Origin: Escherichia phage phAPEC8
Length of the DNA stretch: 64,000 nucleotides
Strand: one strand, 5' to 3'
Sequence record: NC_020079.1
The notes under the pieces were generated by a model. That model was given only the letters and a program-made list of their open reading frames with translations, made no database searches and had not been told where the DNA came from. Shown piece after piece: positions 26,904 through 44,897 of the stretch (position 1 is the stretch's first letter; each line of letters starts with the position of its first letter). Position numbers and translations under genes: made by a program.

Positions 26904-26933
26904 TTGACAAACGTATCCTTCATATGTTAGGAT
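26904..26933 (+). promoter_or_regulatory. sigma70-like promoter upstream of the tRNA operon leader
   Basis: CTATTGACA -35 box, about 17-nt spacer, weak TAnnnT -10. Confidence 0.4.
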
Positions 26934-27142
26934 ACGTTCATCAAGTGTGGTAACAGGGTCGTTGACTTTTGTTAAGAGGGGCTTGCACTGCGGTAGTGTT
27001 AGAGACTACTTCTTCAGAGGTTAGCTACCAAAGAGGAAAAGGAATAGTCTCGGCTCAAGAACTTTTACGCTGAAAGTTGGGCTTGGTCTTAGAGAATGTA
27101 GCGGTTCTCTACAATCGTCAGCGTCTCTGTTACCACATTTAT

Positions 27143-27217
27143 GGCCCTGTAGCTCAATGGGAGAGCTGTCGGCTCATAACCGATAGGTAGCTGGATCGAA
27201 ACCAGCCAGGGCCACCA
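27143..27217 (+). tRNA. tRNA-Met (anticodon CAT)
   Basis: Hand-folded cloverleaf: acceptor GGCCCTG/CAGGGCC, anticodon loop CTCATAA, encoded CCA; T-loop ATCGAAA. Confidence 0.7.
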
Positions 27218-27219
27218 AC

Positions 27220-27294
27220 GTCTTTATGGTGTAATGGATAGCACAGGAGTCTTCTAAACTCTTAGTCAAGGTTCGATTCCTTGTAAAGACACCA
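27220..27294 (+). tRNA. tRNA-Arg (anticodon TCT)
   Basis: Acceptor GTCTTTA/TAAAGAC, anticodon loop CTTCTAA, T-arm CAAGG-TTCGATT-CCTTG, CCA. Confidence 0.7.
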
Positions 27295-27490
27295 GAACAT
27301 TTTAACATGAATTAGCTCAAGTGATTTGAACCCACTACTGATCATGGTGGCAGAGAATGAGGCAAGTATGTCAGACATTATAAACAAAGGCCACGGTTAC
27401 ATTAGAAGACATAAATGCTCGAAGAGCACCGTTCGTGGAGAACGGGGGTTGGTGGAGTCACCATTCATGGTAAAATGTTTTAAAAAACTA

Positions 27491-27520
27491 TTGACAACTA
27501 ACATTATTTTATGTTAGATT
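27491..27520 (+). promoter_or_regulatory. sigma70-like promoter inside the tRNA operon
   Basis: CTATTGACA, 17-nt spacer, TTAGAT/TAGATT -10; a few nt upstream of tRNA-Ser. Confidence 0.45.
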
Positions 27521-27528
27521 ATAAGTAT

Positions 27529-27619
27529 GGAAGGGCAAATCGACGTGGCGACGAAAACGGTCTTGAAAACCGCCGAGCTTGAAAGAGCCTTGGGAGTTCG
27601 ACTCTCCCTCCTTCCGCCA
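27529..27619 (+). tRNA. tRNA-Ser (anticodon TGA), class II
   Basis: Acceptor GGAAGGG/TCCTTCC, anticodon loop CTTGAAA, long variable arm, T-arm GGGAG-TTCGACT-CTCCC, CCA. Confidence 0.6.
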
Positions 27620-27623
27620 GATT

Positions 27624-27709
27624 GGTAGATTGGTGAAATGGTAGCCACGACAGTTTGCTAAACTGTAGTCGGAAACGGCGTGTAGGTTCGAGTCCTACAT
27701 CTACCGCCA
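27624..27709 (+). tRNA. tRNA-Ser (anticodon GCT), class II
   Basis: Acceptor GGTAGAT/ATCTACC, anticodon stem-loop ACAGT-TTGCTAA-ACTGT, long variable arm, CCA. Confidence 0.65.
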
Positions 27710-27836
27710 AGTTGTTTTTAATGTAGCGTTGCGGCTACTTACTTTAGCAGAGTAAATCTTCGGCAAGTGGCGGTAACCACTTTACCGATACCGCATAGTC
27801 AGTAAGGCGAATACTGGCTACTTTAAAAACAATTTT

Positions 27837-42027: not shown

Positions 42028-42034
42028 TAAATAA

Positions 42035-42056
42035 AGGGCAGAAATGCCCTTTTTAT
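42035..42056 (+). terminator. rho-independent terminator after the tube gene
   Basis: AGGGCA-GAAA-TGCCCT hairpin followed by TTTTT. Confidence 0.55.
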
Positions 42057-42072
42057 CATTAGAGAGGAAAAT

Positions 42073-42555
42073 ATGTCACAAGAACAAGATAACACAATTC
42101 AAAAATATGCTCGACCAGAAGAAGTAGTTGAGATTCCGTTAGATGGAAACAGATCTGTTACTTTCCGTATTATGAAGTGGAGTCCATCTAAAGTGTTTGA
42201 CAGGATTCCAGAATTAGGTAGTGTTCTGGTTGTTCCTATGACTATGTATAGCACAGCAACAATGTCCGCAGACGAAGACCTTGAGTCACGTATTGCTATG
42301 GCACTGATCCAACTTTTTGCAGGTTTGGAAGAAAAGAATTTAACTGTCTTTTTGCGTAAAATTTTAGATGAGGTTTATACTCAAGACGGTTATAACGTTG
42401 CAGAAAATTTTGATGAATTATTTATGGCTCACCCAGAACTAGTGTTAGATCTTACGGCTAAAGTTCTGGAGGTAAACTACGGCCCTTTTTTCAAACGAGG
42501 TTTCGGAAAACTGTTCACACAGCTTCAGGCGATGACGAGTTTAGCAGCAAATTAA
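42073..42555 (+). CDS. tail assembly chaperone (lambda G-like, zero-frame product)
   Basis: 160 aa ORF directly upstream of the tape measure gene; contains a slippery heptamer near its 3' end. Confidence 0.5.
   Translation: MSQEQDNTIQKYARPEEVVEIPLDGNRSVTFRIMKWSPSKVFDRIPELGSVLVVPMTMYSTATMSADEDLESRIAMALIQLFAGLEEKNLTVFLRKILDEVYTQDGYNVAENFDELFMAHPELVLDLTAKVLEVNYGPFFKRGFGKLFTQLQAMTSLAAN
42486..42492 (+). other. -1 programmed ribosomal frameshift slippery heptamer T_TTT_TTC
   Basis: X_XXY_YYZ heptamer in the zero frame of the chaperone gene; the -1 frame is open from 42462 to 42821. Confidence 0.5.
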
Positions 42556-42821
42556 CACCTGCGATTGAACATGCTATCGACACAGCAACGAAAACCCTTA
42601 CTTTGAAGTGGTATGAGGTTATTCTTTGCAAAGTCGTTAAAGATACCTCGGAAACACTGAAAACATTGGATAACTACGGTGTAGATTATCTTTTAAAACT
42701 ATATGAGTATTTAACATACGAAGAGTATGTTGAAGCCATGTATGTTAAAGACACTTCAATAAAGAGAAAACATCAAAACCAGACAAATAAAATGTCAGAT
42801 TTGTTTAAGAAACTTGTTTAA
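42492..42821 (+). CDS. frameshift extension of the tail assembly chaperone (GT-like)
   Basis: -1 frame open across the overlap and continuous with the track ORF 42603..42821; fusion about 249 aa. Confidence 0.45.
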   Translation, partial: QTRFRKTVHTASGDDEFSSKLTPAIEHAIDTATKTLTLKWYEVILCKVVKDTSETLKTLDNYGVDYLLKLYEYLTYEEYVEAMYVKDTSIKRKHQNQTNKMSDLFKKLV

Positions 42822-42841
42822 TCCAACACGAGGAACATACT

Positions 42842-44830
42842 TTGTTAGAAATTAACGCCTCCAAAATTAGTAACGTGGTTACGTTTAAGGTGGACAAGAA
42901 CAGTCTCAAGGAAGCAAAAGATGCCGTGTTGAGTGTTCAGAAGTTTGCAAATAAAATGCAACCCACTATGAACATGACCAAGTTTAGACAGCAAATGAAA
43001 GAGATTGAGCGTGAACTTAAGAAAGCTCAAACTCAAAGTCAAAAACCTATGCGAGCACCTACTCCCGCTGGAGCGGGTGCTCCTGTAGGAGGATCTGGTA
43101 GACCTAGAACTCCTAAAACCCCGCAAGGAAGAGAAGAAGAAAAAGCTCGTAAAGCTGCTGAACGCGAAGCTAAAGCAGCAGCACGTAGGGAAGATTTAGG
43201 TAATCTTCGTTTGCAGAACTTTAACTATCGAGCAAGAGCATTTAGTAAAGCTAGTCCTGGCGCTATGCAAGAAGCTAGAGACGTTATGGGTAAAGCTGTA
43301 GAACAATACAAAAAGGGTGAAATAACTCTTCAACGTATGAACCAAGCTCTTGCTCACCAGTTAGATGCCTTACGCAGATCTCATCGTGAAAAGAATGCTG
43401 AAATAGAAGACGAGGTTCGCGGTCGTCGCCGTATTCGTAGAGAGCTAGAAGCAGAAGCTAAAATGCGTATACGTATGCGAAATCGTGAACTTAGAGATAT
43501 AGAACGCAACCGTAAGCGTGAATTAGCTCAACAAAAACGTGATCGTGATCGTCGATATGGACAATTAAAAGAAGGTGCAGCAGGTCTTAATCCACGCATG
43601 ATTGCATCCTCTTTAATAGGTGCTGGGCTGTTTGCAGGTGGTTCTGTAGTTGGTAACACGTTGATGAATACTAACGAAAGAATTAAACTTGTAAGTCGTG
43701 GTGCTGAAAACGTTCAGACAAACGCCAACGCTATTTTGGCAATGACAGCTTGGGGTGAACAGAACGGTGTAGACTCTGCAAATATTATTAAGTCAATAGA
43801 TAATATTAAAGACGTTCGTGAACGTCTTGGTAATACAGTTTTAGCCTCAAAATGGAATGAGAAAGAAGGGAAGTGGAAAGGCGGTGATAATGGCATAAAT
43901 GACATTATGAACTTGTTTGGATGGAATCCAGAACAGCTTAAACCTTTACAGAACGATCCTTTAGCTTTTATTCAGGCTACTGTTAATGAAGGTGAGCGTC
44001 GAGGTATGAACTCTGCTCAAATCGGGCGACTTCTTGAAAACCTTGGTGATGACCTTATGCACTACCAACGTATGTTTAGTAAAAACGGCGAAGGGTATAA
44101 TGAAGTATTGAAAATGCTTCAAAGAACAGGTGCAACATTAACTCAAGAACAAATAGATGCTTCTAAAGAGTTTACTCGTTTTGCTGCAACAGTTCAGCTT
44201 GTAGGTCAAGGTATGCAGAACCATTTCTTAGAGGGTTTTGTAAAAGCTTTACCTAAAGATGATTCTTGGTTGGATAACGTTAAAGTGCTAGATCAGTTCG
44301 CCAAAGATTTAGGTGAAGAACTTGGTAAAACAACAGTTCAACTTGGTGGTTTTGCTAAAGAATTAGGAGATGGTTTCGGATCTTTTACCAATTGGCTTAA
44401 AGAAACATTCCCAGATACCTTCGGAGACAACACAGATCCTAATAAATCTTTGGCACAAAAAGCATACGAGGCAACGCAAAGTGGAGACAGCAATCCTGTA
44501 GCAGATTGGTTGTACAATTTAACAGGTATTGATACACAAGATATTGGTCGTATGTGGAGAGGAGAAGAAACAAGGACACGTGCTTTTGGATTTGGTAATC
44601 CTCTTGAAGATTTACGTGAATCAGCCTATACACCTAACGTAAGTTTGGCTCGTAATCAACCTGTTGTTGAGAATACGGTAGCAATACCAAGTGATCTTAT
44701 CAAAGTTACGATCAGCCCTTCTTCAGAGTTTGGAAATATTCTTGATGCAAGAATTCAAAATAGCGGAAATAGCATTTTCCAACGTTTGTCTCTTTCAACT
44801 CTAAGTGGACAATCTAACACTGGTGGTTAA
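42842..44830 (+). CDS. tail tape measure protein
   Basis: 662 aa; Arg/Lys/Glu-rich N-terminal third; follows the chaperone pair; TTG start. Confidence 0.7.
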   Translation: MLEINASKISNVVTFKVDKNSLKEAKDAVLSVQKFANKMQPTMNMTKFRQQMKEIERELKKAQTQSQKPMRAPTPAGAGAPVGGSGRPRTPKTPQGREEEKARKAAEREAKAAARREDLGNLRLQNFNYRARAFSKASPGAMQEARDVMGKAVEQYKKGEITLQRMNQALAHQLDALRRSHREKNAEIEDEVRGRRRIRRELEAEAKMRIRMRNRELRDIERNRKRELAQQKRDRDRRYGQLKEGAAGLNPRMIASSLIGAGLFAGGSVVGNTLMNTNERIKLVSRGAENVQTNANAILAMTAWGEQNGVDSANIIKSIDNIKDVRERLGNTVLASKWNEKEGKWKGGDNGINDIMNLFGWNPEQLKPLQNDPLAFIQATVNEGERRGMNSAQIGRLLENLGDDLMHYQRMFSKNGEGYNEVLKMLQRTGATLTQEQIDASKEFTRFAATVQLVGQGMQNHFLEGFVKALPKDDSWLDNVKVLDQFAKDLGEELGKTTVQLGGFAKELGDGFGSFTNWLKETFPDTFGDNTDPNKSLAQKAYEATQSGDSNPVADWLYNLTGIDTQDIGRMWRGEETRTRAFGFGNPLEDLRESAYTPNVSLARNQPVVENTVAIPSDLIKVTISPSSEFGNILDARIQNSGNSIFQRLSLSTLSGQSNTGG

Positions 44831-44837
44831 TAAAATA

Positions 44838-44860
44838 CCTCGCTTCGGCGGGGTTTTTTC
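44838..44860 (+). terminator. rho-independent terminator after the tape measure gene
   Basis: CCTCGC-TTCG-GCGGGG hairpin followed by TTTTTT. Confidence 0.6.
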
Positions 44861-44867
44861 GTTTCCC

Positions 44868-44897
44868 TTGACACGAAGTTTCTATATGTGTTACAAT
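44868..44897 (+). promoter_or_regulatory. sigma70-like promoter for the baseplate genes
   Basis: TTGACA, 18-nt spacer, TACAAT. Confidence 0.5.

Follow-up and report, generated by a model that had tools for sequence, protein, structure and literature searches.

Putative sigma-70 promoters before the tRNA and virion genes of a phAPEC8-like Escherichia coli myophage

In the window analyzed here, 64,000 nucleotides of Escherichia phage phAPEC8 (NC_020079.1), eight TTGACA-like sites precede tRNA and structural genes, which raises the question of whether these genes are read by the host RNA polymerase, and whether the sites carry a -35 element specific to the phage. The window, in which all the features given below lie on the + strand, derives from a Phapecoctavirus and is 98.7% identical to vB_EcoM_ASO2A (hereafter ASO2A). 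The comparison set, at ~75% nucleotide identity, was made up of phi92, phiWec190, one Klebsiella phage, and one Citrobacter phage, with IMG/VR contigs added to the alignments for P3, P6, and P7, and the gene names were obtained through related records (ASO2A, phi92, the Klebsiella phage, and LR597654). The annotation of ASO2A names a sigma factor or an RNA polymerase nowhere, and our literature search returned no paper mapping transcription starts in any Phapecoctavirus.

Anatomy and enrichment of the eight sites

All eight sites are present in the window, one of them a single nucleotide away from the position first given (28453 rather than 28454). The TTGACA hexamer is found at 26904, 27491, 28453, 32730, 34422, and 44868, with TTGACT at 29306 and TTGCAA at 29742, and at every site a spacer of 17-18 nt separates the -35 box from a TAnnnT -10 box, preceded by the TGn of an extended -10 in five of the eight. 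The spacers of the tRNA region have 18 nt almost throughout, rather than 17. Every site is intergenic and has the same orientation as the downstream genes, often directly 3' of an intrinsic terminator. The nine-mer CTATTGACA is exact at only four of the sites (starts 26901, 27488, 28450, and 34419), with TTGTTGACA at 32730 and CCCTTGACA at 44868. Two further copies lie inside ORFs, at 40618, where no -10 box follows at 16-19 nt, and at 52619, which has only a weak TACTTT at 16 nt.

The nine-mer occurs six times in the window, always on the + strand, against 0.69 copies expected, and at least six copies were reached in 0 of 100 shuffles. Similarly, the pattern TTGACA-N16-19-TAnnnT has 18 occurrences against 5.7 expected (at least 18 in 0 of 100 shuffles), whereas a loose scan of the region for 9 of the 12 consensus positions returned 48 matches against 47.6 expected, so that the signal resides in the strong matches only. 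The original prediction had proposed a genome-wide motif count, which, when performed in ASO2A with strong matches defined by at least 10 of the 12 positions, placed 40 of 113 matches in the co-oriented intergenic DNA that makes up 10% of the genome. This corresponds to a density of 26.3 matches per 10 kb, approximately 8-15 times that of the remaining DNA (1.8-3.4 per 10 kb).

The boxes and their spacing are also conserved in the alignments of P3 to P8 with phi92, phiWec190, and the Klebsiella and Citrobacter phages, and a scan of phiWec190 yielded counterparts of P1 and P2, that of P2 being present also in phi92. Chance look-alikes devoid of function might be expected in A/T-rich intergenic DNA, given that the genome has 61% A+T and that the loose scan returns as many matches as the shuffles. 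Such an origin is nevertheless so improbable as to be close to negligible, since the exact patterns are enriched, the strong matches are concentrated in co-oriented intergenic DNA, and both boxes are invariant across lineages in which the surrounding genes diverge by ~25%. Given this conservation at ~75% identity and the intergenic density, recognition by host sigma-70, as had been proposed for tRNA and virion genes alike, is well supported by position, orientation, box conservation, and density. It is thus quite probable that the eight sites of this Phapecoctavirus genome function as promoters of the host RNA polymerase with sigma-70, and, as predicted from their boxes, they are of the ordinary E. 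coli type and conserved among related phages. We infer their real use by this polymerase, their start sites, their timing, and the roles of their stem-loops from the same features. One point against this reading is that the annotators of ASO2A marked promoters in the early regions only.

In the mechanism proposed, the consensus or near-consensus -35 box would be bound by sigma region 4, the -10 box, which retains A-11 and T-7, by region 2, and the TGn motif, at the five sites that have it, by region 3, while a tract that is A-rich and then passes from a T-run to an A-run, at approximately -56 to -40, may be contacted as an UP element by the alpha subunits of the polymerase. The closest known counterparts are E. 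coli promoters of the sigma-70 type that contain an UP element, TGn, or both, and that share the TTGACA-like -35, the 17-18 nt spacing, and the TAnnnT box; the putative promoters of the window differ from these in being phage-encoded and in the almost uniform 18-nt spacers of the tRNA region. Another parallel is rV5, a large E. coli myophage of a related kind, placed in a different subfamily, which has 33 sigma-70-like promoters over its whole genome, 11 of them with an extended -10, and which, as its authors concluded, may do without redirecting the host polymerase (Kropinski et al. 2013, PMC3606486). The additional late motif of rV5, TggTAaAAtA, was not seen on reading the regions upstream of the late genes in the window.

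Two promoter-like sites absent from the original prediction were also found. The first (25861..25890) consists of TTGACT, an 18-nt spacer that ends in TGc, and TACCCT, and lies in a divergent intergenic region, before the first + strand gene; its TATGCTACCCT -10 region recurs in phi92, there preceded by a TTGACA (L005 1911). The second, at 26347..26375, combines TTGACT, 17 nt, TGc, and TAAACT.

Promoters of the tRNA cluster and of the virion genes

P1 (26880..26933) has an A/T-rich upstream tract, a -35 at 26904-26909, an 18-nt spacer, TGt at 26925-26927, and the -10 box TAGGAT at 26928-26933; the -35, TGn, and -10 are kept in its phiWec190 ortholog (L006 5790). It would most likely drive a structured RNA of ~200 nt together with tRNA-Met and tRNA-Arg, while the tRNA groups that follow are most likely driven by P2 and P3, the leaders being very short. 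P2 (27465..27520) has an UP-like AAAATGTTTTAAAAAA tract, a -35 at 27491-27496, an 18-nt spacer, TGt, and TAGATT at 27515-27520, and its orthologs in phiWec190 (L006 6379) and phi92 (L005 5984) retain TTGACAA, the 18 nt, and TGTTAGATT. A tRNA-Ser(UGA)-like gene (27528..27615), which is not called by ARAGORN, scores 37.4 bits with the Rfam tRNA-Sec model, under the threshold, and is annotated as tRNA-Ser-TGA in ASO2A, begins ~8 nt past the -10 box of P2, so that next to no leader is expected. P3 (28430..28482), with an A-tract, a -35 at 28453-28458, an 18-nt spacer, and TATAGT at 28477-28482, sits 11 nt upstream of tRNA-Gly, and its TTGACAA and TAnAGT are invariant in eight sequences from six lineages.

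P4 and P5 most likely restart transcription past terminators. P4 (29306-29334; -35 at 29306-29311, 17-nt spacer, TGt, TAAGAT at 29329-29334) follows an intrinsic terminator (29264..29282 plus a T run; combined unit 29264..29334) and precedes the small-terminase gene (29356-29652, named from LR597654), which it would drive; in the relatives, the -35 is TTGACT or TTTACA, and aTGnTAnnnT is invariant. P5 (29742-29771; -35 at 29742-29747, 18-nt spacer, TGa, TAAGAT at 29766-29771) lies after a terminator-like hairpin with a T run (29702-29730; unit 29702..29771), upstream of a small ORF, the spanin genes, and the large terminase, and would thus serve the lysis and large-terminase genes. Its TTTTnTGnTAnnAT is invariant in five lineages, with TTGCnn or TTGATC as the -35.

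P6 (32730..32758; -35 at 32730-32735, 17-nt spacer, TATTAT at 32753-32758) begins 4 nt past the stop codon of the large terminase and most likely drives the portal gene. The -10 box of its relatives is TATTAT, TACAAT, or TGnTAAAGT, and, of 12 sequences, nearly all retain AGATAA-N3-TTGACAAAA. The portal leader has a hairpin at 32773-32791 (GGTTGTAT-ata-ATACAGCC), annotated as a terminator in ASO2A, and a hairpin is found downstream of P6 in every lineage, each with a different stem. P8 (44868-44897; -35 at 44868-44873, 18-nt spacer, TGt, TACAAT at 44892-44897) lies past the tape-measure gene and the intrinsic terminator that follows it (44837-44854 and a T run; unit with the leader hairpin, 44837..44926), and most likely drives the baseplate and tail-fibre genes, named from the phi92 and Klebsiella phage records. 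Its TTGACA and TG-TAnnAT are invariant in five lineages, and its leader has a GGAAGAT/ATCTTCC hairpin (44908-44926).

P7 (34422..34471; -35 at 34422-34427, 17-nt spacer, TAGACT at 34445-34450) stands before the head-morphogenesis genes, which it most likely drives. An inverted repeat, ATATCC (34437-34442)/GGATAT (34461-34466), flanks its -10 box and the expected start site (z = -3.3), and the intergenic region is near-invariant in 12 sequences from the -35 box to the ribosome-binding site, in a surrounding 2.5-kb stretch that is 73-79% identical between the window and its relatives. The conservation of this entire region exceeds the needs of a promoter alone.

Consensus sigma-70 promoters before virion genes do not account for late timing, and the boxes may be real even if P4 to P8 do not work with the sigma-70 holoenzyme alone, the timing being set by a phage-made activator, repressor, or polymerase modifier. 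The near-invariance of P7 and its inverted repeat point in this direction, as do the invariant AGATAA upstream of the P6 -35 box and the early promoters of ASO2A, a separate class with a 16-nt spacer and TAAGATgtatcacata that is absent from the window. There is also a precedent in T5, in which the sigma-70 holoenzyme reads all the temporal classes (pre-early, early, and late), whose promoters differ from one another past the -10 box, near the discriminator (PMC7472727). T5 resembles the phage of the window in being a large virulent coliphage and in having a tRNA cluster, and the early class of ASO2A has its own conserved sequence past the -10 box (gtatcacata), lacking in the promoters of the window, although T5 belongs to an unrelated family and its promoters were mapped experimentally, while those of the window are known from sequence. 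On the other hand, P4 to P8 share no motif outside the core boxes and no regulator was pinpointed, which leaves such control possible though rather unlikely, and it would be an addition to the sigma-70 reading, not a replacement for it.

The CTA triplet and the upstream A/T pattern

A phage-specific extension of the -35 box is not supported; in this reading, promoters of a special class would be marked by a CTA at -38 to -36 and recognized there by region 4 of sigma-70 or by a factor of the phage. The excess of the nine-mer, four copies of which lie at promoters, and its retention in ASO2A speak for it, but the triplet is absent at P4, P5, P6, and P8, and is replaced by GTA (at P1 in phiWec190), GTG, CTC, TGC, TCC, and other triplets in the orthologs of P1, P2, P3, and P7. 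A frequency matrix built from 31 promoters of six lineages has 0.1, 0.3, and 0.6 bits at -38, -37, and -36, and the sole preference in this interval is a T at -37, in agreement with the consensus tcTTGACAt published for E. coli (PMC2412878). In ASO2A, CTA precedes only 5 of the 32 intergenic co-oriented promoters listed, and that of P3 forms part of the left arm of a hairpin, paired with TAG. A special class of this kind is thus very improbable: the proposed extension is, on these alignments, neither a conserved signal nor a recognition element, and the shared CTA is a peculiarity of the phAPEC8 lineage.

What recurs upstream, in place of CTA, is an A/T pattern, T-rich from -50 to -46 and A-rich from -45 to -40 in the same matrix, with 0.6-1.0 bits at -44 to -40. 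This pattern fits the E. coli UP-element consensus AAAWWTWTTTTNNNAAA, as quoted in PMC2412878, with which it is in register.

Stem-loops over the promoters and the structured leader of P1

Most of the promoters are fused to a stem-loop located upstream, downstream, or across the core boxes, and many overlap one, at variable positions. The repeat of P1 (26910..26938), which spans from the spacer across the -10 box, has 10 perfect base pairs (AACGTATCCT, 9 nt, AGGATACGTT; folding z = -4.1), and its phiWec190 ortholog, AAGCGTGTCTTA/TAAGATACGCTT, differs by two compensatory changes and one G-T pair. P2 has AACTAACAT/ATGTTAGAT at 27496-27519, and P3 has ACTATTG-acaac-CAATAGT over its -35 (28449..28467), a hairpin kept at this position with other stems in phi92 (AGCCTCTT/AAGGGGCT), the Klebsiella phage (AATGCTTG/CAAGTATT), and the Citrobacter phage (AGTCCTTG/CAAGGACT). 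Of 33 promoter windows, 13 contain an inverted repeat of at least 8 pairs, where shuffles give 4.2 +/- 1.9, and the mean folding z-score is -1.3 (27 windows); the windows include orthologs and are therefore not independent.

Given these structures, the conserved sequences might act mainly as RNA, as hairpins or leaders that contribute to the processing or stability of long precursors of tRNA or mRNA made by read-through, with the likeness to promoters being secondary. In addition to the enrichment over the promoter cores and the compensatory substitutions in the stems, the inter-tRNA spacers fold far better than shuffles (z down to -5.8), and the single mismatches within stems are G-T in six cases and A-C in one, which fits pairing in the sense-strand RNA. 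Such a role is improbable as the main one, however, given that TTGACA and TAnnnT remain fixed while the stems shift and change sequence around them, that no repeat spans the core at P4, P5, or P6, and that the 17-18 nt spacing is kept everywhere.

Under the preferred reading of sigma-70 promoters, the composite promoter/stem-loop arrangement is the layout of the PeSL (promoter-early stem-loop) cassettes already described in the T4-type phages RB49 and phi1 (Arbiol et al. 2010, PMC2839356; Comeau et al. 2014, PMC4122927), in which the stem-loop lies, by definition, between or over the promoter boxes (PMC2839356). Both are intergenic, with sigma-70-like boxes downstream of an A/T-rich tract, and both have a stem-loop that includes G-T pairs and whose position varies (between the boxes, over either of them, upstream, or downstream) and occur where gene content varies among relatives, which in the window is the tRNA array. 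They differ in that the phage of the window belongs to another subfamily, Stephanstirmvirinae, and that its promoters precede tRNAs and conserved virion genes, whereas PeSLs precede early ORFans. No evidence of cassette recombination was found, as the sole insertion examined (ZCKP1) is flanked by a 10-bp direct repeat adjoining P3, and not by two cassettes.

Finally, the interval between P1 and tRNA-Met(CAU) (26940..27142) contains the structured leader of ~200 nt, a candidate non-coding RNA with an MFE of -76.8 kcal/mol (z = -5.6) and compensatory double changes in 12 of 73 pairs among three sequences. It matches no Rfam family, and a covariance model of it gave no hit when searched against the loci of the phi92-like, Klebsiella, and Citrobacter phages. 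This RNA is a by-product of the analysis that is of more interest than the promoters themselves.

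Genome setting and anatomy of the promoter-like sites

The region between 26000 and 34500 of the window matches the Phapecoctavirus phages of E. coli (phAPEC8-like, Stephanstirmvirinae) in megablast searches, the top match being vB_EcoM_ASO2A, with 98.7% over the full length. The nucleotide-metabolism and replication genes occupy the minus strand (1-25700) and are followed by a plus-strand block (26165-61134) that carries the tRNAs and then the packaging/lysis, head, tail, baseplate, and fibre genes, the gene names being taken from annotated related records. The 11-12 tRNA genes (27143-29148) are separated from the large terminase (30651-32726) by the small terminase, a small ORF, and the spanins, also on the plus strand, and the portal (32828-34393) precedes the head genes, the tail genes, the tape measure (42842-44830), the baseplate, and the fibres, in that order and on the same strand.

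The minus- and plus-strand modules are separated by a divergent intergenic region of 470 bp (25694-26164), which contains two copies of GTACTC(T/C)GTACTA (25941 and 25961), further GTAC-rich motifs (26024-26052 and 26127-26140), and long A/T palindromes (25975-26009). This region may be a replication origin or an array for the binding of a regulator.

The original prediction described a recurrent family of promoters in front of tRNA and structural genes, and all eight of its sites (P1-P8, named in the order of their -35 boxes) are present in the sequence, each with the 17-18 nt spacer and the TAnnnT -10 box. Seven of the coordinates stand as they were given, and only that of P3 has to be corrected, since its TTGACA starts at 28453 rather than 28454. 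The -35 box matches TTGACA at 6/6 positions in P1 (26904; spacer of 18 nt; -10 TAGGAT), P2 (27491; 18 nt; TAGATT), P3 (28453; 18 nt; TATAGT), P6 (32730; 17 nt; TATTAT), P7 (34422; 17 nt; TAGACT), and P8 (44868; 18 nt; TACAAT), at 5/6 in P4 (TTGACT at 29306; 17 nt; TAAGAT), and at 4/6 in P5 (TTGCAA at 29742; 18 nt; TAAGAT). All eight -10 boxes have A at -11 and T at -7, and the spacers fall inside the 16-18 nt range of sigma-70. The TG at -15/-14 of an extended -10 (TGn) is found in P1, P2, P4, P5, and P8, and is missing from P3, P6, and P7, although the phi92-type orthologs of P6 do have it. Similar sites, which had not been listed, occur slightly upstream, at 25861, 26347, and perhaps 26469.

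When compared with chance, the pattern TTGACA-N16-19-TAnnnT was seen 18 times against the 5.7 expected, and the nine-mer CTATTGACA was present in six copies against 0.69, neither count being reached by any shuffle. On the other hand, a loose scan for the sigma-70 consensus (9/12 matches; 25.6-45.5 kb) returned 48 sites against 47.6, i.e., no enrichment, so that only the strong matches are informative, and the count of TGnTAnnnT (241 versus 199) was too noisy for use.

Evidence for probable host sigma-70 promoters

All eight sites are intergenic and lie on the coding strand, in the same direction as the genes downstream. For example, P4, P5, and P8 are placed directly 3' of terminator hairpins with T runs, P6 begins 4 nt past the stop codon of the terminase, and P2 and P3 end 8-11 nt short of a tRNA. 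The genome-wide motif count that had been proposed as a check was made in ASO2A (150 kb), where the strong matches (at least 10/12) are concentrated in the co-oriented intergenic DNA, with 26.3 per 10 kb; the anti-oriented intergenic DNA has 2.0 and the ORFs 1.8-3.4 per 10 kb, which corresponds to a density 8-15 times that found elsewhere.

Conservation was studied by comparing the same region of phiWec190, phi92, Klebsiella phage phi1_175008, and Citrobacter phage Tr1, together with seven IMG/VR contigs, the four named phages being 73-79% identical to the window across the terminase-portal stretch. The alignments of the promoter regions (A1-A6 and A8) and the IMG/VR loci indicate that both the boxes and their spacing are under purifying selection. 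In P6, AGATAA-N3-TTGACAAAA is retained in nearly all of 12 sequences, and the -10 box is TATTAT, TACAAT, or TGnTAAAGT at an unchanged distance. In P8, TTGACA and TG-TAnnAT are invariant, as are aTGnTAnnnT in P4, with TTGACT or TTTACA as the -35, and TTGACAA and TAnAGT in P3 (eight sequences), and in P5 an invariant TTTTnTGnTAnnAT is joined to a weak -35, TTGCnn. Promoters that match P1 and P2 are present in phiWec190, and a match to P2 is also found in phi92. The intergenic region of P7, between the portal and the next gene (34394-34486), is almost invariant from the -35 through the ribosome-binding site in 12 sequences of at least six lineages, in 2.5-kb surroundings that are 73-79% identical to the window, and this constraint exceeds what a promoter alone would explain.

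The position of the sites, their genome-wide distribution, and their conservation agree with the reading of a host sigma-70 promoter given in the original prediction. As the ASO2A annotation names no sigma factor or RNA polymerase, P1-P8 are taken as promoters that would be used by the host sigma-70 holoenzyme, a reading that is well supported by the sequence comparisons; literature searches found no published mapping of start sites for Phapecoctavirus.

These sites are not the only promoter class of these phages. Outside the window, the early regions of ASO2A (L002, 1-5200, and L004, 46900-49750) have a separate class formed by aaaATAgtTTGACAa, 16 nt, and TAAGATgtatcacata, with the -10 TAAGAT followed by a conserved gtatcacata, and each of these promoters has within ~10 nt, on its 3' side, a hairpin annotated as a terminator by the depositors. 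The motif of this early class, TAAGATGTATCACATA, does not occur in the window. In T5, sigma-70 serves every gene class, and the classes diverge 3' of the -10 box (PMC7472727); the early class of ASO2A likewise has a sequence of its own there. In rV5, too, sigma-70-like promoters have been described throughout the genome, of which 11 have an extended -10, and the polymerase was inferred not to be redirected (PMC3606486). The present result suggests that the phages studied here keep to the unmodified host sigma-70 polymerase for the virion genes, as T5 does and as was proposed for rV5.

The promoters of the tRNA region almost always have an 18-nt spacer. No common additional motif was seen in the upstream regions of the other late genes, and no motif is shared by P4-P8. 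The near-invariant region of P7 and the AGATAA found 5' of P6 could be sites for a regulator. This inventory can serve as a transcription map for a genus whose phages are widely isolated for therapy; in the closest annotated record, no promoters are marked in the tRNA or morphogenesis regions.

The proposed extended -35 and the upstream A/T tract

A further part of the original prediction, a phage-specific extension of the -35 formed by CTA at -38 to -36, did not survive the comparison, given that this triplet is present in only four of the eight sites and varies in the orthologs. Among the eight, the exact CTATTGACA occurs only in P1, P2, P3, and P7, and the orthologs of these CTA sites carry GTA, GTG, CTC, TGC, TCC, or other triplets. 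The other copies, at 40618 and 52619, are inside ORFs, one without a -10 at 16-19 nt and one with a weak TACTTT. In ASO2A, the nine-mer is found at five intergenic sites among the 32 intergenic promoters listed. A frequency matrix made from 31 promoters of six lineages has C-38 in 9/31, T-37 in 19/31, and A-36 in 9/31 (0.1, 0.3, and 0.6 bits), the sole preference across these positions being T at -37, with which the published 9-nt E. coli consensus tcTTGACAt also agrees (PMC2412878). In P3, the CTA belongs to one arm of a hairpin, ACTATTG-acaac-CAATAGT (28449-28467). Judged from these alignments, CTA is not supported as a conserved element, and the extended -35 is thereby struck out as a false lead.

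What the matrix promoters do have in common is an A/T pattern, rich in A from -56 to -51, with T running from -50 to -46 and A from -45 to -40, which lines up with the UP-element consensus AAAWWTWTTTTNNNAAA (about -57 to -41). The fit to this UP-like tract differs by site, being good in P2 and absent in P8. At -29, A is weakly preferred as well.

Stem-loops, cassettes, and structured RNAs

Stem-loops are placed over or between the boxes in P1, P2, P3, and P7, leader hairpins are found 3' of P6 and P8, and terminator hairpins 5' of P4, P5, and P8. In P1, an inverted repeat of 10 bp, without mismatches, runs from the spacer through the -10 box, and the phiWec190 ortholog of P1 retains this repeat by means of two compensatory changes and one G-T pair. 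In P7, the inverted repeat ATATCC/GGATAT flanks the -10 box on both sides. The shorter TATCC/GGATA, which P1, P7, and the site at 26347 share, was considered as a common operator and rejected, as it is missing from the P1 ortholog.

A hairpin at the position of P3 is also found in the relatives, with other stems, which are AGCCTCTT/AAGGGGCT in phi92, AATGCTTG/CAAGTATT in the Klebsiella phage, and AGTCCTTG/CAAGGACT in the Citrobacter phage. The stems are given per sequence because they fall in three different registers of alignment A8, which makes a fixed-register count of covariation impossible. Repeats of at least 8 pairs were found in 13/33 promoter windows, against 4.2 +/- 1.9 in shuffled ones (maximum of 10 in 200 shuffles), and those of at least 9 pairs in 7/33, against 1.3 +/- 1.1, these counts being non-independent, given that the 33 windows, from six lineages, include orthologs.

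The single mismatches in the stems are six G-T and one A-C, a bias that fits pairing in the sense-strand RNA. The hairpins over the -35 were also considered as minus-strand terminators, in which the A-tract would supply the U-tail, and this alternative was put aside because the G-T mismatches are on the plus strand (six versus one A-C) and there are no minus-strand genes nearby.

The architecture of P1-P8, i.e., host-type promoters in an arrangement similar to that of the promoter-early stem-loop (PeSL) cassettes, is already known. In the T4-type phages, the PeSL comprises a sigma-70-like promoter preceded by an A/T-rich tract, together with a stem-loop located between the boxes, over either of them, upstream, or downstream, and its authors proposed that the stem-loop attenuates upstream transcription and supplies sites at which modules recombine (Arbiol et al., PMC2839356). 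P1-P8 have the same intergenic promoter type, upstream tract, and stem-loop placement, in a different phage subfamily, to which the layout of this cassette is now extended. The early class of ASO2A, in ORFan-rich regions, is in turn a classic PeSL-like arrangement.

The tRNA content varies among the lineages. One indel was examined, a 703-bp insertion immediately 5' of P3 in Klebsiella phage ZCKP1 (L017, 2450-3153; window 28434-28444), which encodes an HTH antitoxin-like protein that has its own terminator, and whose two ends are marked by a 10-bp direct repeat, TCCCACTCAA, and not by two cassettes. In phi1_175008, a 476-aa protein annotated as RNA-binding is encoded within the tRNA array (L007, 2783-4213), and a promoter/hairpin cassette is found at 4248, 3' of its gene.

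The RNA that follows P1 is the most interesting by-product of the analysis. Between P1 and tRNA-Met (26940-27142, +), a 203-nt RNA folds at -76.8 kcal/mol (z = -5.6 versus shuffles) into a multi-helix junction closed by a long terminal stem, with compensatory double changes in 12/73 pairs among the window, phiWec190, and one IMG/VR contig. At a permissive threshold, Rfam returned only tRNAs and sub-threshold chance matches, leaving this leader without a family. The 69 records in which it was found all belong to Phapecoctavirus or phiWec-type phages, and its covariance model found zero copies in the phi92-like, Klebsiella, and Citrobacter loci. The stretch 26940-27142 is a candidate for a new phage non-coding RNA that would be co-produced with the tRNAs.

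Taken jointly, these observations allow a tentative reading, to which a rather low probability is given, of PeSL-like dual-use cassettes outside the T4 group, with recombination reshuffling the tRNA genes of the Stephanstirmvirinae, and with P1 driving a previously undescribed structured RNA of ~200 nt together with the tRNAs. In such a cassette, one stretch of 40-60 nt would act as a promoter in the DNA and as a sense-strand RNA hairpin in the read-through transcripts, where the hairpin would have a role in processing or attenuation.

ARAGORN did not detect a tRNA-Ser(UGA)-like gene at 27528-27615 (+), which scores 37 bits with the Rfam tRNA-Sec model and corresponds to tRNA-Ser-TGA in ASO2A. 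It starts ~8 nt past the -10 box of P2 (the gap in phi92 is 7 nt longer), so that the mature 5' end would coincide with the start of the primary transcript or lie 1-2 nt past it.

Four of the spacers between the tRNAs are also strongly structured on the plus strand, i.e., 27296-27487 (z = -3.9), 27710-27836 (-3.8), 28568-28665 (-5.8), and 28992-29069 (-4.1), and A/T-rich terminal stems close three of them. In 27296-27487, the UP-like tract of P2 is at the same time the 3' half of the stem, and 28992-29069 resembles a degenerate tRNA. Finally, the region 3' of the small-terminase gene (29653-29740) is highly conserved in five lineages, where CTCTCCTCTCTTGGG...CTTTGCCC...CTCCTCCTTGTTATTT...CCCCTCTCCGAAAGGTTAGGGG is followed by a T run, and this pyrimidine-rich region, with its two hairpins, exceeds the needs of a simple terminator.
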